The notes beneath the pieces were generated by a model. The model saw nothing but the letters and a program-made list of their open reading frames with translations, did not search any database and was not told the DNA's origin. Shown here piece by piece: positions 4,116 through 62,014 of a stretch of 64,000 nt of DNA; positions within the stretch are counted from its first letter, which is position 1, and every line of letters starts with the position of its first letter. Source of the DNA: Coprobacillus sp. (GTDB lineage Bacteria; Bacillota_I; Bacilli_A; RFN20; CAG-826); NCBI GenBank assembly GCA_021203905.1, contig JAJQAG010000004.1:129939-193938 (forward strand), in the 5' to 3' direction. The translations under genes were made by a program, and so were the position numbers.

Positions 4116-4262
4116 TACTTGGCCTCCTTATTTTAAATTCACTAAGGACTCGCTATGAAGGTCGAGAAGAATCTCAGTTAGTAAACCTTTTCTAGGCGGT
4201 TGTAGCTAGTGAGGCTAAACAACGCTTGATACTATAACATAGTTATAATATGCCCGCAAGAA
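4116..4262 (-). promoter_or_regulatory. rplU promoter (TTGCGG-17-TGtTATAGT) plus a leader of about 125 nt, possible L21 leader
   Basis: On the minus strand an extended -10 TGTTATAGT sits with 17-nt spacing to a TTGCGG -35. A long structured 5' UTR precedes the L21 Shine-Dalgarno. The L21 autoregulatory leader of Firmicutes is established knowledge, but the fold was not verified here. Confidence 0.35.
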
Positions 4263-14608: not shown

Positions 14609-14685
14609 TGGCGCCCTCGAGGCGACTCGAACGCCTGACCCACAGCTTAGAAGGCTGTTGCTCTATCCAACTGAGCTACGAGGGC
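14609..14685 (-). tRNA. tRNA-Arg (anticodon TCT)
   Basis: The reverse complement folds as a cloverleaf: acceptor GCCCTCG/CGAGGGC, T-loop TTCGAGT, anticodon loop CTTCTAA. U33 and A37 are present. The discriminator is G and CCA is encoded. Confidence 0.9.
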
Positions 14686-22913: not shown

Positions 22914-25621
22914 CTTGGGCAAAGATATGAATCTTTCTCTACCTCTATGGCGTCATAATCATAGTTCCAACATCTCTCACAATAGTGTCCACTATGACGA
23001 TGGACATCAATGATTGAGTGGTTATATTCATCTCCTTTAATTTCTTCTTTATAGATATTAAATCCGGAGACGACAAAGAGATTCTTTAAATCTTCTTTGT
23101 TTATTTTATCAAATAAGTGGGAAATATTTACATCTTTTATGAAAATATTTACTTCCGCTTCTTGACTAGAACCAATAGTTCCTTTTTCTCTCTCCACTTC
23201 AAGTGCCTTTAAGACTTCACTTCTTAAAGCCTTAAAGAGTTCGTATTCCAAGAGAAGAGCGTCATCCACTTCCCCCTCTTTTGGAAAGTCGAGCAATTGG
23301 ACATATTCCTCTCTTTTCCCAGGAAGATTCTTATTAAATTCGTCCATGGTGAAAGGAAGAATAGGATTAAGTAATCTTAAGATAGATTCTGAGACGAGAT
23401 ACATCACTGATTGCATCTGGTTCCTTCTCTTTGAATCTTTTTCATCACAATATAAAGTGTCTTTAGCAATATCTAGATAGAAGGAAGATAAATCACTAGA
23501 AAGGAAAGTCGTAATATAACTCATTCCGTTCGCGTAGTTATATTCATCAAAACTCTTTCTCACTTCTCTCTCGACATAGTGTAAACGATTAAGGATATAG
23601 GTATCCACAAGGGTAAAATCACTAGTAGTATTCTTGGGATCAAAGTCCACAAGATTCCACGACATAAACTTTAAAGTATTACGGATTTTACGATAGACTT
23701 CACTTACTTGTTTAATGATATCTTCACTCATTCTCACATCGCTTTGATAGTCGATTGTCCCGCAGTAAAGACGAACGACATCGCTACCATACATATCTAT
23801 CACTTTAAGTGGGTCAGTACCATTACCTTTAGACTTAGACATCTTCTCCCATTTTTCATCCATGATAAACCCATGGGTGACCACGGCATCATAGGGGGCG
23901 TGACCATAGACTGCGGTCGAGATAATAAGGGAAGAATTAAACCATCCACGATACTGATCGCTCCCTTCTAAGTAGAGATTTGCGGGGAAATTTAAACCTT
24001 TATCGACGATATTGTACATAAAGGAAGAACCACTATCAAACCACACATCCATGATATCGACTTCCTTAGTAAATATCCCGTGGGGAGAATGAGAATTTTT
24101 ATAGCCTTTAGGGAGTAAATCTATCGGGTCTTTTTCATACCATACATTTGACCCATTTTCTCTCACTAATTTAATAATATTATCAAAGACTTCTTTCTCA
24201 ATAATGGGAGTCTTATCTTCACAGTAAATAATGGGGATAGGAACACCCCACGCTCTCTGACGAGAGATACACCAATCGCTACGATCTTTAATCATATTGA
24301 CCATTCTTACTTCTCCCCAACTTGGGTACCATTTTACCTTATGAATTTCATTTAGAAGCTTCTCTCTAATGGGTTCAATTGAGCAGAACCATTGATCCGT
24401 CGCTCTAAAGATTAAAGGTTTATTAGTTCGCCAATCATGAGGATAGGAGTGAATAAAGGTTTCATGTTTTAAAAGATGTTGATTCTTCGCGAGAATATCA
24501 AGAACGACATCATTTCCTTTCTCGTAGAATAAACCACTTAACTCTGCTCCGACACTCTCATCAAAATATCCCTTCTCATCCACTGGGCAATAAGGTTCAA
24601 TCCCATATTTTTGACAGACAATAAAATCATCCACACCATGTCCACCAGCGGTATGGACAAATCCCGTTCCAGCGTCATCGGTAACATGAGTTCCAAGAAT
24701 AATGGGAACTACTCTCTCATAGAAAGGATGAGAACATTTAACAAGTTCCACTTCTTTTCCCTTAAATTCCCGAATGAGTTTCACATCTTTAAGATTAAGT
24801 TCATTCACTAATTTATCTTTTAGAGAAGTAAGGAAGGCTAAGTTTCCTCTGTTTGTACAATACACTCCATAAGTAAAATCTGGATGAGCGGATATCGCCA
24901 TATTTGCAGGTAAGGTCCATGGGGTGGTGGTCCAAATAACCACTTGATCACCTTTGTTTAAGATGCCATTTCCTTCAATGACATCAAAGGCCACATAGAT
25001 AGAGTGGCTTTCAACATCTTTATATTCAATCTCTGCTTCTGCTAAAGCGCTTTCACTACTCGGGGACCAATAGACAGGCTTAAGGCCTTTATAGATAAGA
25101 CCATCAAGCGCCATCTTGGCGAAACACTCTAGCTGGCTAGCTTCGTATTCTTTTAAAAGGGTGAGATAAGGTTTCTTAAAATCTCCCACGACTCCTAAAC
25201 GTTGGATTTCTTCTTTTTGTCTTTCCACTTGCTCCAAAGCATAGTCTTTACATTGGTCACGGAACTGGACAATAGGTGTGGTCTTTCGATTGATTCCCAT
25301 CGCTGTGACTTTATTTTCAATAGGGAGACCATGGGTATCCCAACCAAAGACAAAGGGTGTTTGATAACCACACATATTCTTATAACGGATGGTGATATCT
25401 TTAAGCACTCGATTAAGCATATGCCCACAGTGCATATCTCCGTTAGCGTAGGGCGGTCCATCATGGAGAGTGTACTCTGGACACTCTTTTCTTTTCTCCA
25501 TCATTAAAGAGTAGAGATCCTCATCTAACCACTTCTTGATAAGAACTGGTTCTTTAGAAGGGAGGTTTCCTCTCATCTCAAAATTACTTTTATTCATCAG
25601 TAAGGTGTCTTTATAATCCAT
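22886..25621 (-). CDS. ileS: isoleucyl-tRNA synthetase
   Basis: 911 aa. HMGH-type motif region, KMSKSKGN, and a C-terminal Zn finger CERC...CPRC. Confidence 0.97.
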   Translation of the reverse strand: MDYKDTLLMNKSNFEMRGNLPSKEPVLIKKWLDEDLYSLMMEKRKECPEYTLHDGPPYANGDMHCGHMLNRVLKDITIRYKNMCGYQTPFVFGWDTHGLPIENKVTAMGINRKTTPIVQFRDQCKDYALEQVERQKEEIQRLGVVGDFKKPYLTLLKEYEASQLECFAKMALDGLIYKGLKPVYWSPSSESALAEAEIEYKDVESHSIYVAFDVIEGNGILNKGDQVVIWTTTPWTLPANMAISAHPDFTYGVYCTNRGNLAFLTSLKDKLVNELNLKDVKLIREFKGKEVELVKCSHPFYERVVPIILGTHVTDDAGTGFVHTAGGHGVDDFIVCQKYGIEPYCPVDEKGYFDESVGAELSGLFYEKGNDVVLDILAKNQHLLKHETFIHSYPHDWRTNKPLIFRATDQWFCSIEPIREKLLNEIHKVKWYPSWGEVRMVNMIKDRSDWCISRQRAWGVPIPIIYCEDKTPIIEKEVFDNIIKLVRENGSNVWYEKDPIDLLPKGYKNSHSPHGIFTKEVDIMDVWFDSGSSFMYNIVDKGLNFPANLYLEGSDQYRGWFNSSLIISTAVYGHAPYDAVVTHGFIMDEKWEKMSKSKGNGTDPLKVIDMYGSDVVRLYCGTIDYQSDVRMSEDIIKQVSEVYRKIRNTLKFMSWNLVDFDPKNTTSDFTLVDTYILNRLHYVEREVRKSFDEYNYANGMSYITTFLSSDLSSFYLDIAKDTLYCDEKDSKRRNQMQSVMYLVSESILRLLNPILPFTMDEFNKNLPGKREEYVQLLDFPKEGEVDDALLLEYELFKALRSEVLKALEVEREKGTIGSSQEAEVNIFIKDVNISHLFDKINKEDLKNLFVVSGFNIYKEEIKGDEYNHSIIDVHRHSGHYCERCWNYDYDAIEVEKDSYLCPRCHHLMEKK

Positions 25622-27671: not shown

Positions 27672-27709
27672 AAAAAAAAAGGTGGCTGGGCCACCTTTTA
27701 TTTATTGTT
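27672..27709. terminator. bidirectional intrinsic terminator
   Basis: A9 followed by GGTGGCtggGCCACC followed by TTTTATTTATT. It serves both the plus-strand island and ftsZ on the minus strand. Confidence 0.65.
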
Positions 27710-28808
27710 TCAAGAAAGAGGGGAGAATGTTAGATTTATCTAACTCCTCCTTCTCTTCACTCTTTTCTGGCTCACTCTCTTCAATGGGAGCCTCCTCAAT
27801 AGTAGGACGAGTAATTGGATCCACAAGCAAGGGTTGAGAGAAATCCATCTCTTGTTCAAAGTCCGCGGCAATGACACTGACGATGATTTCATCATCGAGT
27901 TGATCATTAATGCTCACTCCAAACTTGATATCAATATCTCTTCCCGCGGCTTCGATAAGATATCTCACCGTATCTTGAGCATCAAAGAGAGAGACATTAG
28001 TGCCACAAGTCACAGAGACAATGGCGCGTCTTGCTCCAGCAACACTGGCTTCTAGTAAAGGAGAGGAGATGGCGCTTAAAGCGGCGTCTTTTGCCCGATT
28101 AGGTCCTTTTCCATAACCACTACCAATGAGTCCCACTCCAGAATGTTGAAGGGTATTTCTCACATCCGCAAAATCGAGGTTGATAACTGCGGGGAGTAAG
28201 ATGAGATTCACCACTGTCTTCACAGATTGCGATAAGACTTTATCGCTTTCCGCAAAAGCACTAGGAATAGGAATTGTTCCCACATTTCTAAGGAGTTGAT
28301 CGTTAGAGACGACAATAATTGAGTCGACATTTTCTTTAAGTTTATTTAAGCCATCGATGGAGTTATTGATCCTTGTCTGTCCCTCAAAGGTAAAAGGACG
28401 AGTGACAATGGCCACGACTAGCGCACCTGCATCTTTCGCGATACGAGCGACCACCGGAGCGGCGCCTGTACCAGTGCCACCACCCATACCGGCAGCGATA
28501 AAGACAAGATCCGCACCATTAACCATCTCTCTAATGGCGTCAGCGCTCTCTTCTGCGGCTTTTTCTCCGACTTCAGGAACACCCCCGGCTCCTAAGCCTC
28601 CCGTCGTGTTCTCTCCTAAAACTGTCCTATTTGATGCTTTAGAAGAGGAGAGAGCTTGTTTATCAGTATTCAAAACATAGAAGGTGACATTAGCAATTTC
28701 ATCATCAATCATACGATTGACAGCATTGCTTCCTGCTCCCCCCACACCAATGACGACAATTTTGCATGCGGGTTCAAAATTATCTAAGTCATAGTTCCCA
28801 CTAGCCAT
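27702..28808 (-). CDS. ftsZ: cell division GTPase FtsZ
   Basis: GGGTGTG tubulin signature. The start is set at MASGNYD (ATG at 28808) with a GGAGG Shine-Dalgarno. The track ORF extends 22 codons upstream into ftsA. Confidence 0.95.
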   Translation of the reverse strand: MASGNYDLDNFEPACKIVVIGVGGAGSNAVNRMIDDEIANVTFYVLNTDKQALSSSKASNRTVLGENTTGGLGAGGVPEVGEKAAEESADAIREMVNGADLVFIAAGMGGGTGTGAAPVVARIAKDAGALVVAIVTRPFTFEGQTRINNSIDGLNKLKENVDSIIVVSNDQLLRNVGTIPIPSAFAESDKVLSQSVKTVVNLILLPAVINLDFADVRNTLQHSGVGLIGSGYGKGPNRAKDAALSAISSPLLEASVAGARRAIVSVTCGTNVSLFDAQDTVRYLIEAAGRDIDIKFGVSINDQLDDEIIVSVIAADFEQEMDFSQPLLVDPITRPTIEEAPIEESEPEKSEEKEELDKSNILPSFLKQ

Positions 28809-30030
28809 TGTTACGACCTCCTTTAGAAGATGTACGTGTTCCAGTAGGATTGGCTGCTGGACGAGTATCTTCATAAATATTCTTATATTTAGAGTTTGTT
28901 AAAACTGCTCCTAAGACATTGTAGAGATTGGGTTTTCTCGCTCCTAAACTCGTGGGTACGGGAGTGGTGATATTCTTTGAACTCACTATCGGAGAGAGAT
29001 AGGAGACGAGTCCATTAAGACGGGCTCCACCCCCGATTAAGACCATCGGGAGAGAGCGGTAAAAGTCTTTCTCTTCCTCTTCATAACCCGCGAGTAAGAC
29101 ATCTATCGTCGTATTGAGATGATTGATGAAGGTTTCAAGTTCTTCTTTGACAAGATCATTTAGTTCAGAAGCATAACAGACCTTCCCCTCTTCGCTTGTA
29201 TAGATGGGAACTTGGAAACGCATTTGCTTCTTATCATAGCCATAGAGACATTTAAGCTCTTCGGCTTTTTCCATAGAAACACTAAGATGATGAGCGATAT
29301 GTCTCGTAATACTATTCCCACCCCAGGCAAACTGTTGAGAGGAATATAGCACTCCATCGCCAATAAGAGAAACAGTAGTCATCTCTCCACCGATATCCAC
29401 TAAGAAGTAAGCACTAGGGGTTGTGGGTTGAGTAGCGAGTAGTTCGCAAGCGGCAAAAGGTGCCACTACCATTCGAGAGATAGATAATCCCGCTTCAAGA
29501 ACCGCTCTACGATAACTATCAATAAGAGGGATGGGGAGAGTGTGAAGTTTCGCTCGCATGGTTAGTCCCGTAGAAACTAAACCAATAGGAGGGGTTATAT
29601 ACTCCTTCCCATCATCGACAATGAAGGTGTCAGGGATAATATCCACACAATCATTATTGAGTTCCGCCGGAAATTTATCTTTTCTAATCAAAGCGTATAA
29701 GTTCTTAATATCTATCGTATCGATTCTTCCTTCTGGAGAGACAATCGTCGTGAACTTATCATTGTTAAAGACCACAAGACCATTAGGAGGAAGCACTAAG
29801 ATAACCTCTTGAACGAGGACCGAGATCTTTGCATCAGGATCTTCAAACTTGGTTAAAGAACTAATCTCTTTGACAAGTTTGGCTTTATCAACGATGGAAC
29901 CATTCTCGATGACACCAGAAAGAGGTTTCTCCTTCACATAGATAACATACACTTGTCCTTCATTTTCAAAACCTTCAAGAAGTTTGAGAGATGAATCCGA
30001 AATTTCAAGAACAAAGACAGGTTTTTTCAT
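28801..30030 (-). CDS. ftsA: cell division protein FtsA
   Basis: 409 aa. Actin-like ATPase fold with an SHS2 insert. It lies immediately upstream of ftsZ. Confidence 0.88.
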   Translation of the reverse strand: MKKPVFVLEISDSSLKLLEGFENEGQVYVIYVKEKPLSGVIENGSIVDKAKLVKEISSLTKFEDPDAKISVLVQEVILVLPPNGLVVFNNDKFTTIVSPEGRIDTIDIKNLYALIRKDKFPAELNNDCVDIIPDTFIVDDGKEYITPPIGLVSTGLTMRAKLHTLPIPLIDSYRRAVLEAGLSISRMVVAPFAACELLATQPTTPSAYFLVDIGGEMTTVSLIGDGVLYSSQQFAWGGNSITRHIAHHLSVSMEKAEELKCLYGYDKKQMRFQVPIYTSEEGKVCYASELNDLVKEELETFINHLNTTIDVLLAGYEEEEKDFYRSLPMVLIGGGARLNGLVSYLSPIVSSKNITTPVPTSLGARKPNLYNVLGAVLTNSKYKNIYEDTRPAANPTGTRTSSKGGRNNG

Positions 30031-30333: not shown

Positions 30334-30552
30334 TTATTCATCAAATGGGGATTCGTAAGATAAAACATCAATAGAAGAGGTTTCAAGATTCTCCACGACT
30401 TCTGTGTGAACAGTCGAGGTTTTGTTATTTGAAAGATATGTAGGGATAGTGATGATAGCGCCGATTGAAACGAACAATAAAGTAATGAAACTGATGTTTC
30501 TTAAGCGATAGTAGCTTGCGGTCCTGTTGTACTTAATAAGTTTGTCTTTCAT
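30334..30552 (-). CDS. FtsL-like single-TM cell division protein
   Basis: 72 aa from the ATG at 30552 (MKDKLIKY). The helix ISFITLLFVSIGAIITI is hydrophobic. Its position between rsmH and ftsA matches ftsL in division and cell wall (dcw) clusters. Confidence 0.5.
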   Translation of the reverse strand: MKDKLIKYNRTASYYRLRNISFITLLFVSIGAIITIPTYLSNNKTSTVHTEVVENLETSSIDVLSYESPFDE

Positions 30553-30562
30553 CGTGTTTCCT

Positions 30563-31501
30563 CTACTTTCTTTCAATCACTCTTAGCTTTGCGCTCTTAC
30601 ATCTGGGATTAGCTTCCACCTCTTCTTCACTCGGGGTGATCACCTTATTGTTGATTAACCTATAATCAACATCCCTATTTATCTGCGGTCCATTGATTCT
30701 ATCTCCTTGGACGACGGCATACTTTCTAAATGTTTGTTTCACTATCCTATCTTCTAGGGAATGGAAGGATATTACTGCAAGTCGGCCACCACTATCTAAG
30801 AATGGCAAGACCTTCTCTAAGGTTTCTCTTAGGACATTGAGTTCATCGTTTACTTCAATACGGAGAGCTTGAAATACTTGTTTAGCGGGATGACCGGGTT
30901 TAGATAACTCCTTACTGGGCTTGCTCTTTTTAATGATCTCTACGAGTTCAAGTGTGCTTTCAATCGGTTTCTTTTCTCTTTCTAGGACAATGTTTCGAGC
31001 AATGCTTGAGGAGTATTTCTCTTCTCCATATTCTTTGAATATCTGGGTGAGTCTCTCTTGCGAATAGGTATTAACAACTTCTCTTGCGCTCAAGGGATTG
31101 TCTTTATCCATTCTCATGTCAAGAGGTCCATCTTCTCGATAAGAGAAGCCTCTCTCACTCTCATCAAACTGGTTTGAGCTGACCCCAAGATCCATAATCA
31201 CTCCATCGACAGAAGTTGTTCCTAACTCCTTTAAGATGGTGTCAACATGGACGAAGTTATCTTTGATAAGGGTGAATTTCTTTGAGATGTGATTAAGTCT
31301 CTCACTAGAGGCTTTTATCGCCTCTTCATCTTGATCAACCCCGATAAGATAACCTGTCGTGAGACTCTCAAGGATTCGTGAAGCATGTCCTCCTCTTCCT
31401 ACGGTGAGATCAAGATAGATTCCTTCGGGCTTAACTTTTAAGAGAGAAATAGTCTCCTCAACTAGGACTGGTAGATGTCCGTAATCCTTATCACTCGCCA
31501 T
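30563..31501 (-). CDS. rsmH: 16S rRNA m4C1402 methyltransferase RsmH (MraW)
   Basis: SAM motif DLTVGRGGHA. The start is trimmed to MASDKDYGHLPVLV (ATG at 31501). The track ORF overlaps mraZ by 143 nt. Confidence 0.9.
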   Translation of the reverse strand: MASDKDYGHLPVLVEETISLLKVKPEGIYLDLTVGRGGHASRILESLTTGYLIGVDQDEEAIKASSERLNHISKKFTLIKDNFVHVDTILKELGTTSVDGVIMDLGVSSNQFDESERGFSYREDGPLDMRMDKDNPLSAREVVNTYSQERLTQIFKEYGEEKYSSSIARNIVLEREKKPIESTLELVEIIKKSKPSKELSKPGHPAKQVFQALRIEVNDELNVLRETLEKVLPFLDSGGRLAVISFHSLEDRIVKQTFRKYAVVQGDRINGPQINRDVDYRLINNKVITPSEEEVEANPRCKSAKLRVIERK

Positions 31502-31922
31502 GATCAATGAGTTCACCTGCGACTTCTTCATAAGAAGAATCAGCTTCTTTTTCGTATTCGAGATACTTCGTACGATCCCAAATTTCAATGTGGTCCACCA
31601 CTCCAAGGATGAAAATATCTTTTCCGATTCCATACCTGGTGATGAGGGCAGTGGGTATCGTCACTCTTCCAAGCTTATCAACCTCTAGTTCATAGGTAGA
31701 AGAGAGTTGGGTTCTTATGTAAGAGCGGCTCTCCTTCTTTTGAAAAGGAAGAGAGTTTATTTCGGTAATTAAGTTATTAAATGCTTCGGCGCTATAAAGA
31801 GAAAGCGCTCCATCATATCCCTTCATGATATAAAGAGGAGAGGAGACCTCTTCTCTCATCCTTTTAGGGATGACAATGCGGTTCTTTTCATCAAGTGAAT
31901 GTTCATAACGACCAAAAAACAT
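31491..31922 (-). CDS. mraZ: transcriptional regulator MraZ
   Basis: The start is set at MFFGRYEHSLDEKNRIVIP (ATG at 31922). Two DxxxR repeats are present. Confidence 0.9.
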   Translation of the reverse strand: MFFGRYEHSLDEKNRIVIPKRMREEVSSPLYIMKGYDGALSLYSAEAFNNLITEINSLPFQKKESRSYIRTQLSSTYELEVDKLGRVTIPTALITRYGIGKDIFILGVVDHIEIWDRTKYLEYEKEADSSYEEVAGELIDHGE

Positions 31923-31927
31923 ATTTA

Positions 31928-31951
31928 CCACTTTTTCCCACTTTTTACCAC
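31928..31951 (-). promoter_or_regulatory. three direct AAAGTGG repeats at 10-bp spacing, putative MraZ operator
   Basis: The minus strand reads caAGTGGtaaaAAGTGGgaaaAAGTGGtaaatATG. The repeats sit in the 5' UTR directly before the mraZ start codon. Confidence 0.6.
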
Positions 31952-31959
31952 TTGACTAT

Positions 31960-31989
31960 ATTATAAATAGCATTTTAAAAGTTTGACAA
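31960..31989 (-). promoter_or_regulatory. mraZ promoter (TTGTCA-18-TATAAT)
   Basis: Perfect -10 at plus 31960-31965 and near-consensus -35 at plus 31984-31989 on the minus strand. Confidence 0.55.
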
Positions 31990-32055
31990 CACTTATTTTG
32001 ATAAAAATAAAAAGCCCTCCAAAAGGAGAAGCTATGTTACAGATGAGAAGATTGG

Positions 32056-50731: not shown

Positions 50732-52123
50732 ATGCCAGAGTTACCAGAAGTCGAAACAATTCGCAATATCTTAAAATCCATTGTGATTGGAAAAACCATT
50801 TCAAACGTGGATGTTTTTCGTGAAAAAACTATTTTAAGTGATGTGAATGAATTCAAAAATAATTTAGTGGGAGCCACGATAAAAGATATAGAGAGAAAAG
50901 GGAAATTTCTCATCTTTGTTTACGACAATAATTACGCTTTACTCTCTCACCTACGCATGGAAGGAAAGTATTATCTCTTAGAGGAAGAGACACCAAATAC
51001 TAAGTATGCTAGAGTGGTCTTTCACTTTACAGATAACACCAAATTGTGCTTTGATGATTCGCGATGCTTCGGGATTATGAAATTAGCAAAAACAGCGGAA
51101 ATTTACGAAGAAAAAGAATTAAAAAGCTTAGGATTAGAGCCTTTTGAAATTTCTGATGTCGATTTTTTGATGAAACGGAATAAGAAAAGTAATAAACCCA
51201 TTAAGTCAACCTTGCTAGATCAAACTCAAATTGCTGGTCTTGGGAACATTTATGCGGATGAAGTTCTCTTCTATAGTGGTATTAACCCACTAGAAAAAGC
51301 GAAAGATATAACTAAAGATCAATGGAAAACGATTATTAAAAATGCCGTTATTATTTTAAATAACGCGATTAAAGATGGAGGCAGTACAGTGCATTCCTAT
51401 CACCCCGCTGATGGAATTGACGGCAATTTCCAAACAAAATTAAAAGCGTACGGAAAACGAGGAGAAAATTGTCCCAATTGTGGACACGAATTGTATTATA
51501 AAAAGATTAATGGACGAGGCTCTACTTATTGCCCGATGTGTCAAAAGAAGCAACACCCGCCTATCTTTGTTGGTTTAACTGGTCCTATCTCTAGCGGAAA
51601 ATCTGTTGTTCTTGAAATATTCAAGAGAGAAGGTTGCTCTGTTCTTTCATGCGATGAGGTGGTTCATGAGTTATATAAACAACCAGAGGTTATTACAAAA
51701 ATCTCCTCTATCACGGGCTTAAAATTTGGAAATGAAGTTGATAGAAATGCTTTACGAGAATACACAAACGGCAATCTTAAGGCTCTAAAACGCATTGATA
51801 ATTACATCCATCCTCTTGTGAGAAAGTATGTAAGCGAATTTCTTGATGAAGCCTGTGGTAGCGCTGTTGTGGAAGTTCCACTTCTTTTTGAAAGTCATTT
51901 CCAAGATCTATTTGATTACATTGTCGCAGTTTCTATCTCTAAAGATAGGCAGTTAAAATACCTTAGAGCGAGAGAAGAGCATTTTGAAGAAATGCTTGAA
52001 TTAAACGGAAAAGAAAACACCTTCTACACAGAGAAGGCGGATTATGTCATAAAAAATGACGGAGATTTAGAACAACTTTCGAAGGAAGTTAAGACTTTTC
52101 TTCGTAAAGTCCAGCGAGATTAG
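50732..52123 (+). CDS. mutM-coaE: formamidopyrimidine-DNA glycosylase fused in-frame to dephospho-CoA kinase
   Basis: The N-terminus reads PELPEVE and the Fpg domain ends in the Zn finger CPNC...CPMC. This is followed directly by the CoaE P-loop IFVGLTGPISSGKS. There is no stop between the two domains. Confidence 0.8.
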   Translation: MPELPEVETIRNILKSIVIGKTISNVDVFREKTILSDVNEFKNNLVGATIKDIERKGKFLIFVYDNNYALLSHLRMEGKYYLLEEETPNTKYARVVFHFTDNTKLCFDDSRCFGIMKLAKTAEIYEEKELKSLGLEPFEISDVDFLMKRNKKSNKPIKSTLLDQTQIAGLGNIYADEVLFYSGINPLEKAKDITKDQWKTIIKNAVIILNNAIKDGGSTVHSYHPADGIDGNFQTKLKAYGKRGENCPNCGHELYYKKINGRGSTYCPMCQKKQHPPIFVGLTGPISSGKSVVLEIFKREGCSVLSCDEVVHELYKQPEVITKISSITGLKFGNEVDRNALREYTNGNLKALKRIDNYIHPLVRKYVSEFLDEACGSAVVEVPLLFESHFQDLFDYIVAVSISKDRQLKYLRAREEHFEEMLELNGKENTFYTEKADYVIKNDGDLEQLSKEVKTFLRKVQRD

Positions 52124-52979
52124 AAACCACAATCTCATGGTCACAATCAAGAGCAATAAGATCGACGAGATCTTTTGCTTTGTATCGAGAATCTTTACTC
52201 ACAGTAATATAGTGTTCAAATAATTCATTAAAGGAGAACTTTGAAACATAAATTGTTTCAAGTTGTCTCTCATTTCTAAACTTAATAATCTTTTTGATGA
52301 TTTGATCACGGATGTAATCATTCGCAAATTCTTCTCCAAAATTATCCAAGACGAGAAGATTACAGCGGGAGTATCTTTTAATCATCTCTTCTCTCTCTTC
52401 TTCACTAGCTTTATTCATTTCGTTAATGCGGTAGACACTATCAAGATAGCAGATTTTGTCCACTCCATCTTTAGCGATTTCATTCGTAATCGCGGTGGCT
52501 AGATATGACTTACCAGTATTCTCCGCTCCTTGAATATAAGTAGACTTACGATCAAAGTAGGCTCTTTGAATGGCATCATATCTCTTCTTAGAGGTATCAA
52601 GATTTCCGGTCTTAATATCAAGAATGTCCCACTCTTGGGGATAATCTCTAAGAATGTATCTTGTATTTAGTGTGGTTAACTTAAGGATTTGTTGGCAGGG
52701 AATAAATAGTTCTTCCACCACTCCAGAGTGAACTTTGATATTACTGGTGACAAAGCTCTCTTTCGAGCACTTTTCAATTCCAGGACATTTGGAACAAATT
52801 AAATGATCACAGACATAGTCATAAACACTGTAAATATATTCATCAAGGAGCTTCTCATCAAGATTAGCGGGTAATGGAACTTCTTTTTCGTGCTTTTTAA
52901 TAAAAGCTTTCATCGAAGCAATTTGCTTGGTGTCTCTTTTTATTCCTAATTCATCGATGTTGATATTAATCTTTTCCAT
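52089..52979 (-). CDS. dnaI: primosomal helicase loader DnaI
   Basis: 296 aa. AAA+ Walker A GAENTGKSYLA and Walker B LLVLDNFGEE. An N-terminal Zn-binding domain is present. Confidence 0.85.
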   Translation of the reverse strand: MEKININIDELGIKRDTKQIASMKAFIKKHEKEVPLPANLDEKLLDEYIYSVYDYVCDHLICSKCPGIEKCSKESFVTSNIKVHSGVVEELFIPCQQILKLTTLNTRYILRDYPQEWDILDIKTGNLDTSKKRYDAIQRAYFDRKSTYIQGAENTGKSYLATAITNEIAKDGVDKICYLDSVYRINEMNKASEEEREEMIKRYSRCNLLVLDNFGEEFANDYIRDQIIKKIIKFRNERQLETIYVSKFSFNELFEHYITVSKDSRYKAKDLVDLIALDCDHEIVVSNLAGLYEEKS

Positions 52980-54228
52980 GGCTTATTGAGTTGATGAGAG
53001 CGTCCCAATCCTCCTTACTGATTTCATCGTCTTCTTCCTCACCTTTCTTAGAAGGAGTATGAGGAGAAGGAAGTTTAGTGGTCGTGTTATAAAGATACTC
53101 AAAAGCATCTTTTGCACAAGTGCATTTCTGTCTCTTTAGTGAGGCTCCTACCTTATCAAGGTAGGAAAACTTAAGAATGTTATTACAACGATCAAGGGTA
53201 AATTCAATTAAAGCGTTTAAGACTGAATTCGCTAAACCATACTTCATAGAAATATAGTTAATGGCTTTGATATCTGAGTCTGCGGGGGTGGTATAACCTT
53301 GTAAACGAGAGAGGTAATCAGTGGGTGAAAGGGTTTCACAAGTGTTGATCTTCTCTCCTAGTTCTGTTGTGGAGGAAACCTTATCACCACTTGATTTCTC
53401 CTTGGGAGTGTACATCACTCTATCGTGATGATAGAGAAGGATTTGACTAAGTAAGGTGTCAAAGTCCACTCTCTCACCTTTTGGTTTCTCACTATCGTAG
53501 ATCTTAAGGAAGATCTCCGCTCCTTGTTCTTCTTGAATTCCATTAAGAGTGAAGAGGGAGACAAGGCGATTGAGTTCGTCTCTTGTTAGAGCGTCTTGAT
53601 AATAGGCATAACCCCCATTCTTCTCTTTAACAAACTGGAAGAAGAGATCAACATCAAATTCAGAAACTATGTTTCTGGTACGGCGACTCTTCATCTTTTT
53701 ATTGTGGGAAGTCGTAATATCAAACATCGCACTATCAATATCCGCGATCCCAAAGGCTTCTTGGAAATTAGAGGTGATGTCATCGCCTTCATCATGACCT
53801 TCACTAAGATAATATAAAGACTTAATTCTCTCCGCTTCATCTTTTCCAAGAGAACTTTCAAAAAGAGAACTTCGATAGGGATCCACAAAGAATTGACTAG
53901 GAACGACAGGGGCTCTTAATTCATAGTGGTAGATGCTCGCTCCATTAGTGGTTTCAAGTTTTGTCTTAAGAAGTCCAATCCCTTCTAGTTTTTCTCTTGC
54001 ATCCATAAAGGTTTGAGAATTCATCTTGAGACGATTCCAAAAGTTTTCGTGAGTGGATAAGGAGAAGACTTCTTGATTTCTTGCTTCCGCCATAAAAGAA
54101 AAATATAAAGCCACGGCTTCATATCCAATAATGGGTTGATAGAGATTAACAAGAGTCTCTCGATCGTAGTCCGCAACGAGAGAACCAAATCTCACACTAA
54201 AGTAATCTTGTCCACTTACTATTACCAT
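52966..54228 (-). CDS. dnaB: replication initiation/membrane attachment protein, DnaD-domain DnaB of the Bacillus type
   Basis: 420 aa with a DnaD-like C-terminal region. It lies immediately upstream of dnaI and overlaps it by 14 nt. Confidence 0.7.
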   Translation of the reverse strand: MVIVSGQDYFSVRFGSLVADYDRETLVNLYQPIIGYEAVALYFSFMAEARNQEVFSLSTHENFWNRLKMNSQTFMDAREKLEGIGLLKTKLETTNGASIYHYELRAPVVPSQFFVDPYRSSLFESSLGKDEAERIKSLYYLSEGHDEGDDITSNFQEAFGIADIDSAMFDITTSHNKKMKSRRTRNIVSEFDVDLFFQFVKEKNGGYAYYQDALTRDELNRLVSLFTLNGIQEEQGAEIFLKIYDSEKPKGERVDFDTLLSQILLYHHDRVMYTPKEKSSGDKVSSTTELGEKINTCETLSPTDYLSRLQGYTTPADSDIKAINYISMKYGLANSVLNALIEFTLDRCNNILKFSYLDKVGASLKRQKCTCAKDAFEYLYNTTTKLPSPHTPSKKGEEEDDEISKEDWDALINSISHGKD

Positions 54229-58083: not shown

Positions 58084-60000
58084 ATGCTTCAACAGATTAC
58101 TCTCTCTTGTCTATTACTTATCGGAAACATGGCGGGTCTCACTGCCTCTTTTTTTACAAATGATGACGAAATGTATAGAGAAGGGTGTTGCCTTATTGAT
58201 GCACCGTATGCGAGTTGCCTTGATAATGAAAGAGAGATTACGGGGGTTGATGAAACATACATTCTCACTGTAAGTGAAGAGGTTAACTCTCTTACCTATC
58301 GAGGAGAGGTGACACTCCTCGAGTATACGATTAAAGAGGGAACAGAAGTTACATGCCTCTTGACTGATTTTATTGATTTAGGAAATATCATCTTTGATTT
58401 TTATCATGATGAAGAGTACATCGCTTCCTACGCTTTGTACTTTGCTAGAGATGACGAAGGGGCCTTTTATTCAAGCGGGAGAAGCCTTGACTGTGCAAAA
58501 TCTCTCGCGGGTCAAGAACTCGGTTATGTTTTTCTTGCGAGTGAAGAAGAGCCAGAAGAAGAGTTAGAAAGCGAGACTTCAAGTGGTCACCGAACCCATG
58601 GAAAGATCTATGGCTACTTTAAGTGGATGGACGATGATGAACAGATTCATCCACTTGTGGGAGCAAAAGTAAAATTAAAAGTAAGAGGAAGCTTCTATAG
58701 TGAAACAACCTATACAGATGATAATGGTTACTACTGTTTTGAGTATAGTAATGTTTTCTACTATGGCTCAGGAATGGCAACAGTTACCTTAAGTTTAGAG
58801 AATGATCTTATTAAAGTTAAAAACTCAAATGTCTATGCCTATAAATACAAACTACAAAAAAGAGATGTTACCTATGAACTATCACAAACCTTCTCCCCTG
58901 AACAAGATGGTGATTTTGGAAAGGCGGCATCAATCTTTCAAGGATTCTATTGCTTTTCCAAAGTAGCGAAAGAATTTGACTACAAGAATAAATTATCTAA
59001 GATTTCCATTATTTATCCTTCTAGTCGGGTGATGTTAATGTCGTTCATGTGGGGAGAAAGAAAAATCGAGGTGGCCAACTATATAGAGAAAAGTGGCTAC
59101 CCAAAAGCCTATGCCTCGTGGGATTCATTTGGGCATGAATATGCTCATTTTGTATGCGCTCGCTACGGATTCTTTTCTTGGTCATCTTCTAATATAGCCC
59201 ACAACAGCATCATAAATCGTATTGAATTGATTATCTTAAATGATGGTGACTCCGCGAGAAAAGCAAAAAGAGTCTCCACTCGTTTGGCGTTTAATGAAGC
59301 CTGGGCCGCCACTTGGTCGGTATTAATTCAACAGTACTTTGATGATGAATGGAAAAGTGTCGCCACAGTGGGAGATAGTTGCTATACCAACTCTTCGGGA
59401 GTAGATGATGATTTTGATGACTATGACACTGACCACCCCGAAAGATATGGGGATAGTGAGGAGTTAGCTCTCTCTAAGATTCTCTATAAACTCGCCACTT
59501 TTGAAACCGATGAATATGATAAATTTTCCCTGGGATTTGAAGAGTTTTGGAGAATTTCTTACGAAAATAAGACAAAGTCTCTCTATGATTTTATCGATGC
59601 GATGTATGAGCAAGGATATAGTAAGAGTGATCTTGGACTTTTACTTGGTCAATTTAATGTCACCCCAAATAAAATCCAAATCACTAATTACTATTTAGAT
59701 ACCTGCCCTACATTAACTTGGTCAGCTTATATGGGAACAGCATACTTTAACTATAATCGTTTTGATATCTATTTCCTTGATGACAATGGAAACGAGATCC
59801 TAAAAAAGAAAGTCAAATCACATGGAGAAGTTACTTGTTCCTACACCTTAAAAGAAGAGGATTGGCAATTAATTCTCGATTCATGTCAAGAGTGCTTCTC
59901 TATCAATATGGTGGTGTGGCAAACAACTTATCGAGATACTGGGGGTTATTATACAGAAACCTTTAGTTATGATCTACCCACTCAATACTATTATCAATAA
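58084..60000 (+). CDS. secreted HExxH...ExxA protein, putative zinc metallopeptidase, paralogue 1
   Basis: 638 aa. N-terminal signal/anchor, acidic linker, a carboxypeptidase-regulatory-like beta-sandwich (PLVGAKVKL...TDDNGYYCF), then WDSFGHEYAHFV and NEAWAA. A GGGAGG Shine-Dalgarno sits 26 nt after thrS. Confidence 0.65.
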   Translation: MLQQITLSCLLLIGNMAGLTASFFTNDDEMYREGCCLIDAPYASCLDNEREITGVDETYILTVSEEVNSLTYRGEVTLLEYTIKEGTEVTCLLTDFIDLGNIIFDFYHDEEYIASYALYFARDDEGAFYSSGRSLDCAKSLAGQELGYVFLASEEEPEEELESETSSGHRTHGKIYGYFKWMDDDEQIHPLVGAKVKLKVRGSFYSETTYTDDNGYYCFEYSNVFYYGSGMATVTLSLENDLIKVKNSNVYAYKYKLQKRDVTYELSQTFSPEQDGDFGKAASIFQGFYCFSKVAKEFDYKNKLSKISIIYPSSRVMLMSFMWGERKIEVANYIEKSGYPKAYASWDSFGHEYAHFVCARYGFFSWSSSNIAHNSIINRIELIILNDGDSARKAKRVSTRLAFNEAWAATWSVLIQQYFDDEWKSVATVGDSCYTNSSGVDDDFDDYDTDHPERYGDSEELALSKILYKLATFETDEYDKFSLGFEEFWRISYENKTKSLYDFIDAMYEQGYSKSDLGLLLGQFNVTPNKIQITNYYLDTCPTLTWSAYMGTAYFNYNRFDIYFLDDNGNEILKKKVKSHGEVTCSYTLKEEDWQLILDSCQECFSINMVVWQTTYRDTGGYYTETFSYDLPTQYYYQ

Positions 60001-60070: not shown

Positions 60071-62014
60071 TTGTTTCGTCAGTTATTGCTTTCTTGTCTT
60101 TTAGTGGTTAGTTCTCTCTCAGGGATGGTGACAACCTCTATTTTTACTAACTCCTACGAATACGATAGTGGTGATTACATTTGTGATGACTCTCCTTATG
60201 TGAGTTGCCAAGATAATGAGAGAGAAGTAACGAATAAAAAAGAATCCTATGTTTTTGTGGCGAGTCAAGAAATTGACAGTGTCAAATGGGAGGGAGAGGT
60301 CACCCTTAGCCACTACGAAATAAGAAATGAAAATGAAATGACTGCCATTGTCACTAATTATATCGATCAGGGAGAAATTACGTTCCACTTCTACTATCAA
60401 AAGGAATACGTCTGCTCCTATGCTTTATATTTTGCTTGTAGTGAAGATGGAACATTCTATTCCAGCGGAAGGACACTCGATTGCGCAAAAATGCTTGCGG
60501 ATCAACAAGTTAACTACACCTTTTTAAGTAATGATGAAGAAGAGGAAGATGAACTTGTCACTATAGAAGAGAGCACTTCCTTTGGTTTTGGAACCCATGG
60601 TAAGGTCTATGGGTGGTTCCACTGGTGTGGCGATGATGGTGAATCCTATCCCCTTGTAGGAGCGAGGGTCACCTTAAGAATTGGGGGGAGTTGGTATAGT
60701 CAAGTCACCCATACAGACGAAGATGGATATTATTGCTTTGAATATCAAAAGGTTTGGTATTTAGGAAGCGGTCGTCCAACAATCACTCTCCGCCTTCAAA
60801 ACGAGAAAATAAAAGTGAAATCTTCAGGAGTCTATGCCTATAAGTTTAAGATGGCGGAAAAAGACACGACGATGGAGTGTTCGCGAACCTTCACCATTGA
60901 AGAAGATGGAGATTTTGCCAAAGCCGCAGCTCTTTTTCAAGCGGGTTATCTCTATTCTAATTTTGCCTTTGAACATGACGAAGGTGGCATTCTCAAATCA
61001 TGTAAAATAAGATATCCTTCGAATTATGACACTATCTGTTATACCGAAAACATTCGAAGAATAAATATCCCTAATACCATTAATGAAAACTCACCCTCTT
61101 GTTACATGGCGTGGGATACAATTGGGCATGAGTATTGTCATCATGTCCAGGCTTGTCACAAAATAGATCATGTTAGTAAGCACCACAATTCTGCTTATAA
61201 CGACATCGACTATCTCATTGATCGATCTTATTCGACCATGAATAAAGTCAAACATGAGGGAACGACTCTCTCTCTCGATGAGGGATTTGCCACTTATTGG
61301 GGAGTGGTAGCCCAACAGTCCTTTGACCCTAGATGGTGGTATGTCCCCACAGTGGGAGATGCATCCTACACCTCAAGTGGGGGCGCCAATTATAGTTTAG
61401 ATGTCTATTACGATTCCCAAAGCCGTAACCTTGGAGATTGCCAAGAGAGAGCAATTGCTAGAATTCTATATAAGCTCACTTCCGATAAGATTGATACCTA
61501 TGACCGCTTTGCCCTTGGTTTTGATACCATCTGGGAACTCTATGAAAAATATTTACCCACCACCATGAGTGAGTTTATTAACATTCTCTATGAGCAAGGT
61601 TATGACAAATATGATCTTGGACTCTTGCTTGGTCAGTATGGTGTCACCCCGAGTAGCATGAACATCACAAATAATAGCTATGATACATGCCCTACATATA
61701 CGTGGTCGACCTCTTCTGGGAGTAAATACTTCCAATATAACGAATTTGACTTTGTCATCCTCTCTAATGAGGGAGAAGAGTTAATAAACCACCATTTCGT
61801 CTCCGATAATGATGAAGACACCTATTCTTACACTCTCAGTGAAGAAGAGTGGCAACTCATTCAGAATTCCACTTCCCAGTTGTACTATGCCTATCTGGTG
61901 ATGTGGCAAACTGATGATTTTGTCACCGGAGGTTACTATTCAAACTTATATACCTTCTATCTTCCAAGACGGATTGTGATTATTCCGAGACCCGGGGATC
62001 TGATTATCACTTAA
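60071..62014 (+). CDS. secreted HExxH...ExxA protein, putative zinc metallopeptidase, paralogue 2
   Basis: 647 aa, co-linear with paralogue 1 throughout. Motifs WDTIGHEYCHHV and DEGFATYW. TTG start with a GAGGAG Shine-Dalgarno. Confidence 0.65.
   Translation: MFRQLLLSCLLVVSSLSGMVTTSIFTNSYEYDSGDYICDDSPYVSCQDNEREVTNKKESYVFVASQEIDSVKWEGEVTLSHYEIRNENEMTAIVTNYIDQGEITFHFYYQKEYVCSYALYFACSEDGTFYSSGRTLDCAKMLADQQVNYTFLSNDEEEEDELVTIEESTSFGFGTHGKVYGWFHWCGDDGESYPLVGARVTLRIGGSWYSQVTHTDEDGYYCFEYQKVWYLGSGRPTITLRLQNEKIKVKSSGVYAYKFKMAEKDTTMECSRTFTIEEDGDFAKAAALFQAGYLYSNFAFEHDEGGILKSCKIRYPSNYDTICYTENIRRINIPNTINENSPSCYMAWDTIGHEYCHHVQACHKIDHVSKHHNSAYNDIDYLIDRSYSTMNKVKHEGTTLSLDEGFATYWGVVAQQSFDPRWWYVPTVGDASYTSSGGANYSLDVYYDSQSRNLGDCQERAIARILYKLTSDKIDTYDRFALGFDTIWELYEKYLPTTMSEFINILYEQGYDKYDLGLLLGQYGVTPSSMNITNNSYDTCPTYTWSTSSGSKYFQYNEFDFVILSNEGEELINHHFVSDNDEDTYSYTLSEEEWQLIQNSTSQLYYAYLVMWQTDDFVTGGYYSNLYTFYLPRRIVIIPRPGDLIIT

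Follow-up and report, generated by a model that had tools for sequence, protein, structure and literature searches.

Three AAGTGG boxes between a predicted promoter and mraZ can be annotated, with high confidence, as a putative MraZ operator; the mraZ gene itself begins 5 nt downstream of the last box. As judged from the sequence, autorepression of mraZ-rsmH, and perhaps of ftsA-ftsZ, would be the most likely function of these boxes, since the array stands at about the predicted transcription start. The array is a further instance of a well-characterized type of MraZ operator, and as such the finding opens no new question. It provides a confident annotation of the site at which the cell-division cluster of an uncultured gut bacterium would be regulated, and it adds approximately 40 Mollicutes-like species of Bacilli to the set in which a MraZ box array is conserved.

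The window, by which we mean the whole 64-kb stretch of DNA that was analyzed, carries the array on its minus strand, where the elements can be read in the order TTGTCA-18-TATAAT-atagtc-AAGTGG-taaa-AAGTGG-gaaa-AAGTGG-taaat-ATG. The features of this region are as follows.

32015 to 32030, minus strand: terminator-like hairpin after the upstream yceD-like gene (hairpin, YceD Pfam domain)
31984 to 31989, minus strand: -35 hexamer TTGTCA of the predicted mraZ promoter (promoter scan; 18-nt spacer)
31960 to 31965, minus strand: -10 hexamer TATAAT (promoter scan)
31948 to 31953, minus strand: putative MraZ box 1, (c)AAGTGG, core GTGG at 31951-31948 (sequence reading)
31938 to 31944, minus strand: putative MraZ box 2, AAAGTGG, core GTGG at 31941-31938 (sequence reading)
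31928 to 31934, minus strand: putative MraZ box 3, AAAGTGG, core GTGG at 31931-31928 (sequence reading)
31491 to 31922, minus strand: mraZ, 143 aa, presumed cognate regulator (Pfam PF02381 MraZ, E value 6.9e-27)

The initial annotation had described direct repeats at a 10-bp period between a near-consensus promoter and the mraZ ATG. Both parts of that description hold, as the sigma-70-type promoter TTGTCA-18-TATAAT has 11 of 12 matches in the promoter scan and the GTGG cores start at 31951, 31941 and 31931, a period of exactly 10 bp. The repeats had also been called three copies of AAAGTGG, which is correct for boxes 2 and 3 but not for box 1, which reads CAAGTGG; what all three boxes share exactly is the 6-mer AAGTGG. 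The A-rich 5' flank of the AAAGTG[T/G] box form is nevertheless present, in full in boxes 2 and 3 and as CAAGTGG in box 1. The -10 hexamer ends 8 nt before the core of box 1, and box 3 ends 5 nt before the mraZ ATG (31922-31920). Placing the transcription start at the usual distance of approximately 7 nt past the -10 hexamer predicts a start near 31953. Counted from there, the boxes would span approximately +1 to +26 of a leader of about 31 nt that contains boxes only. The array would thus start at about the transcription start, in analogy to Mycoplasma genitalium, where the start lies inside box 1.

No fourth box precedes the array, the sequence 10 bp upstream of box 1 being ATAT. Two other candidates were considered and rejected. 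The first, ATGT at the start codon, follows box 3 after a spacer of 5 nt, but in relatives the ATG stands anywhere from 1 to 7 nt after box 3. The second, AAGTGT at 31994-31989, overlaps the -35 hexamer, lies 41 nt upstream of box 1 and is absent in the closest relatives (L001 and L002), and it was treated as a chance occurrence. Since the terminator-like hairpin at 32030-32015 closes the yceD-like gene, mraZ appears to have a promoter of its own, which the hairpin would insulate from that upstream gene.

The automatic listing of open reading frames opens the mraZ frame at a GTG at 31931, inside box 3. We place the start at the ATG at 31922, because homologues begin with MFFG and because relatives do not keep a multiple of 3 between box 3 and the ATG. 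The MraZ chains 1n0e, 9qlr, 9qlg and 9sx6 of the PDB match the encoded protein with E values of about 1e-19, and NCBI has an identical protein under the label 'MAG: Coprobacillus sp.'. Five residues (D11, K13, R15, D82 and R86) were invariant in an alignment of 19 MraZ sequences, and in the window protein all five align with M. pneumoniae MraZ (PDB 1n0e). The protein therefore has the two DXXXR motifs together with the base-contacting residues K13, R15 and R86.

A mechanism can be proposed from these features and from published structures. In each helical turn one box would be read by one MraZ subunit, whose 'cradle' of K13, R15 and R86 would enter the major groove there, and neighboring subunits of the oligomer would bind cooperatively. 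A MraZ oligomer on approximately +1 to +26 would deny RNA polymerase the DNA required to form an open complex and to escape from the promoter. The outcome would be negative autoregulation of mraZ-rsmH and of any transcription that reads through into orf80-ftsA-ftsZ. Control of ftsA-ftsZ is the less certain part, because a separate promoter-like site precedes ftsA, and these two genes may escape MraZ. The sign of the regulation is not certain either, since activation has been reported in M. gallisepticum; by analogy with the other studied systems, we infer repression at the mraZ of the window.

In order to compare the array across species, one genome per species was scanned with a pattern built from 10 closer MraZ sequences, which returned 80 loci of other species that encode a relative of the window MraZ. 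The closer loci (L001-L041) come from uncultured MAGs named 'Bacilli' or 'Coprobacillus', many of them labelled as rumen, faeces or gut, with MraZ proteins 39-67% identical to that of the window. Among the more distant loci (L042-L080) Syntrophomonadaceae predominate; four loci are from Clostridium and a few from unclassified Bacillota MAGs, and MraZ identity to the window protein is 36-42%. A three-box array with spacers of 6-7 nt, one degenerate box being allowed, was present within 150 nt upstream of mraZ in 76 of the 80 loci, while the remaining four had only two clear boxes. The strict threefold GTG[GT]-N6 pattern was found in 64 of the 80 (25 close and 39 distant), and it did not occur anywhere else, on either strand, in the 482,322 bp of these loci. 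The core of box 2 was GTGG in 24 of the 25 close strict loci, the other one being GTGT, and in all 39 of the distant ones. In the position counts the box cores were invariant and the spacers varied, and both groups had 5' flanks rich in A. Invariant cores with variable spacers are the footprint that would be expected of a protein-binding site.

Among the 37 closest three-box loci, a -10-like hexamer ends 8-11 nt before the core of box 1 in 34 (TATAAT in 21 of these 34) and 1-5 nt before it in the other three, and the close relatives have hexamers of the TTGC(A/G) type at the -35 position. The two groups of loci can be set side by side with respect to the spacing on either side of the boxes.

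Close clade (L001-L041): -10 end to box 1 core usually 8-11 nt, hexamer usually TATAAT; box 3 to ATG 1-7 nt (5 nt in the window)
Distant group (L042-L080): -10 end to box 1 core mostly 3 nt, hexamer TAGAAT; box 3 to ATG 25-47 nt

The initial annotation had read the repeats as a MraZ operator and had named their absence at mraZ in related genomes as a reason to abandon that reading; the relatives do carry the three boxes, in the proportion given above. The reading is supported further by the Pfam-identified mraZ gene directly downstream, by the published type of the boxes and by the lack of such arrays elsewhere in the loci.

The alternative that survives best is that the repeats act in RNA, as a translation enhancer, a ribosome-binding region or a site for an RNA-binding protein, and not as a DNA operator, and to this we give a slim chance. 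It would fit the observations that the whole predicted leader consists of boxes, that box 3 lies at the usual Shine-Dalgarno position, and that the leader is unstructured and purine-rich. Yet in Syntrophomonadaceae and Clostridium the same boxes stand 25-47 nt upstream of the ATG, and separate G-rich stretches just upstream of the start codon resemble, by eye, Shine-Dalgarno sites. Box conservation is thus independent of the position at which the ribosome binds. A fixed Shine-Dalgarno role cannot be reconciled with the range of 1-7 nt between box 3 and the ATG within the close clade. The leader pairs weakly with the assumed 3' tail of the 16S rRNA, at -5.3 kcal/mol, compared with -10 to -16 kcal/mol in the same calculation for those genes of the window that have strong Shine-Dalgarno sites. 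No RNA structure was found in the leader, whose repeat region is unpaired (z-score 0.74), and this lack of structure was counted against a purely RNA-level function as well. We conclude that a purely RNA-level function of the boxes is unlikely.

A secondary role in ribosome loading could exist beside the operator function. Since the predicted leader is only about 31 nt long and has boxes throughout, ribosomes would have no other place to load than transcribed boxes 2 and 3, a purine-rich and unstructured stretch with weak pairing to the anti-Shine-Dalgarno sequence. It is conceivable, if rather doubtful, that the operator has been compacted onto the start codon in this uncultured, gut-associated lineage of Bacilli (41 sampled species). 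The leader of approximately 30 nt would then consist of transcribed boxes, box 3 or box 2 would be the sole ribosome-loading sequence, and selection would act on the boxes twice over, for their service as a DNA operator and for a weak, non-canonical function in ribosome binding. If this were true, the dual-use boxes would hard-wire a low translation of the autorepressor, which would be of modest interest. The location of box 3 at 5 nt from the ATG, with the putative operator filling the whole leader, is the only mildly unusual feature of the array and is a minor architectural variant.

A DNA or RNA G-quadruplex formed by the G-rich repeats and regulating mraZ, as claimed for Staphylococcus aureus, is a still fainter prospect. 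The precedent is a motif reported to form a G4 downstream of the mraZ promoter in S. aureus, such motifs being stated to be conserved across bacteria (PMC11796246). Only three G-tracts (GG, GGG and GG) are present here, however, separated by A-rich loops of 8 nt, and a search that accepted G-tracts as short as two and loops as long as 12 nt found no four-tract G4 motif in the region. The maximum G4Hunter score is 0.80, which is below the commonly used threshold of approximately 1.2. In addition, what is conserved is GTGG with its T included, repeated every 10 bp exactly, as would suit recognition by a protein better than conservation of G-tracts.

That the array is a chance low-complexity repeat in an A-rich intergenic region is barely credible: the 7-mer AAAGTGG is indeed common in the window (33 copies against 8.6 expected from dinucleotide shuffles), but the 26-nt pattern AAGTGG-N-AAAAAGTGG-N-AAAAAGTGG arose in none of 100 dinucleotide-preserving shuffles, and shuffles and conservation at the same place in other species together effectively refute a chance origin. 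The 26-nt pattern has a single copy in the 64-kb window with up to two mismatches allowed, and GTGG-N6-GTGG-N6-GTGG with up to one mismatch was found in the window only at mraZ, against an expectation of 0.03.

The excess of AAAGTGG was itself considered as a possible regulon and rejected. The copies are mostly in coding sequence and lie on both strands, spread over sense, antisense and intergenic positions, and AAAGTGG ranks only 293rd among the 15,112 7-mers of the window; its excess reflects general composition. The window contains three further pairs of the form GTGG-N6-GTGG, all on the minus strand (at 23647, 29387 and 41128), where 0.42 would be expected over its whole length. All three are inside genes, namely a class I tRNA synthetase gene, ftsA and a glgB-like gene. 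The pair in ftsA, GTGGATATCGGTGG, reads in frame as V-D-I-G-G and matches the VDIGG segment of FtsA. These additional pairs probably reflect coding constraints and are not MraZ sites.

The mraZ gene heads the cluster mraZ-rsmH-orf80-ftsA-ftsZ, whose remaining features are listed below.

30563 to 31501, minus strand: rsmH (mraW), start overlapping the mraZ end by 11 nt (Pfam Methyltransf_5, E value 4e-119)
30334 to 30576, minus strand: orf80, 72-80 aa, with a hydrophobic stretch resembling a single transmembrane segment (position conserved in relatives)
30318-30290, minus strand: promoter-like site TTGACG-17-TAAAAT with TG extension, 10/12 matches, in the 300-nt gap upstream of ftsA
28801 to 30030, minus strand: ftsA (Pfam FtsA, E value 8.5e-13)
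27702 to 28808, minus strand: ftsZ (Pfam Tubulin, E value 5e-52; FtsZ_C, E value 7e-21)
27699-27677, minus strand: terminator-like hairpin after ftsZ (terminator scan)

The rsmH product begins MASDKDY..., as read from the sequence. No Pfam match was found for orf80, but most of the 41 closer loci (L001-L041) give a tblastn match between rsmH and ftsA, at 26-50% identity, and the product could be a minimal analogue of FtsL or DivIC. The site at 30318-30290 may drive ftsA-ftsZ independently of MraZ. The gene order pheT-yceD-mraZ-rsmH-orf80-ftsA-ftsZ is kept across the close clade, in approximately 41 species represented by uncultured 'Bacilli' or 'Coprobacillus' MAGs. The cluster contains no wall-synthesis genes (no ftsL, pbp, mur, mraY or ftsW), and none was detected among the 26 ORFs of the window that were scanned against Pfam. 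Such a reduced dcw cluster, as has been described for wall-less mycoplasmas, suggests a Mollicutes-like and possibly wall-less lineage. It uses the standard genetic code, the long ORFs of the window being intact under table 11.

The initial annotation had taken the repeat motif as a hint of affinity with Mollicutes or Erysipelotrichia. The Coprobacillus-labelled identical protein, Coprobacillus being a genus of Erysipelotrichia, and the Mollicutes-like reduced dcw cluster do point, independently of the motif, towards such an affinity. The motif, on the other hand, is not diagnostic, as Clostridium and Syntrophomonadaceae share the A-rich boxes; the A-rich AAAGTGG form is widespread in Firmicutes and is no signature of Mollicutes.

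Several other features were recorded in the window. Rfam searches matched a ribosomal protein L21 leader at 4135-4211 (39.7 bits; gathering score 36) and one tRNA at 14612-14685, both on the minus strand. In a single 463-aa ORF at 50732-52123 on the plus strand, formamidopyrimidine-DNA glycosylase domains occupy residues 1-221 and a dephospho-CoA kinase domain occupies residues 279-447; the ORF may be an fpg-coaE gene fusion or the product of a lost stop codon. Three long ORFs, at 52966-54228 on the minus strand and at 58084-60000 and 60071-62014 on the plus strand (420, 638 and 647 aa), had no Pfam match at an E value of 1e-5 or lower. The upstream context of the ORF at 58084 reads AAAGTGGGAGGAAAGA-ATG, and the GGAGG in it is a normal Shine-Dalgarno sequence.

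Repression by MraZ has been reported for E. coli, B. subtilis and M. genitalium. The MraZ site of Mollicutes is given as AAAGTG[T/G] direct repeats in the papers that cite the original description (Fisunov 2016, cited in PMC8475190 and PMC5138195). For M. genitalium, binding and repression have been documented by EMSA and reporter assays, the transcription start has been mapped inside box 1, and a cryo-EM study of 2026 placed one MraZ subunit on each box, with K13, R15 and R86 contacting the GTG(G/T) bases and D11 and D82 positioning the arginines (PMC12957436). The window protein carries all five of these residues at corresponding positions. The exception concerns M. gallisepticum, in which MraZ overexpression was activating and not repressing, according to the introduction of the same paper (PMC12957436).

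The M. genitalium operator consists of AAAGTGT-N3 three times followed by AAAGTGG (PMC12957436), and the array of the window resembles it in several respects. In both, A-rich AAAGTG(G/T) boxes with a 10-bp period follow directly on the -10 hexamer, and the start of transcription, mapped in M. genitalium and predicted in the window, would fall in or at box 1. Both belong to a reduced dcw cluster, which in M. genitalium is mraZ-mraW-(ftsA-like)-ftsZ, and the K13, R15 and R86 positions are identical. The window differs in having three boxes instead of four and in having cores that are all GTGG, whereas those of M. genitalium are mostly GTGT. It also has a clear ftsA, a small conserved ORF between rsmH and ftsA, and the standard bacterial code.

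In B. subtilis, repression by MraZ needs three GTGG[A/T]G repeats with 4-nt spacers, as well as R15 and R86 (bioRxiv 10.1101/2022.02.09.479790). The window shares with the MraZ binding repeats (MBRs) of B. subtilis and other Firmicutes the three GTGG boxes, the 10-bp period and the location in the mraZ promoter region. The two bases that follow GTGG, however, are TA, GA and TA in the window and [A/T]G in B. subtilis, and the window array abuts the start codon, unlike that of B. subtilis. The B. subtilis operon also runs on into ftsL and pbpB, in contrast to the cluster of the window with its lack of wall-synthesis genes. The Pmra region of E. coli reportedly contains three TGGGN repeats with 5-nt spacers, and its MraZ is an autorepressor, as that of the window would be. 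Pmra and the window array are alike in having three direct repeats with a 10-bp period between the promoter and mraZ, but the core of Pmra is written TGGG(N) and that of the window GTGG, and E. coli has a longer leader and a full-length dcw operon.
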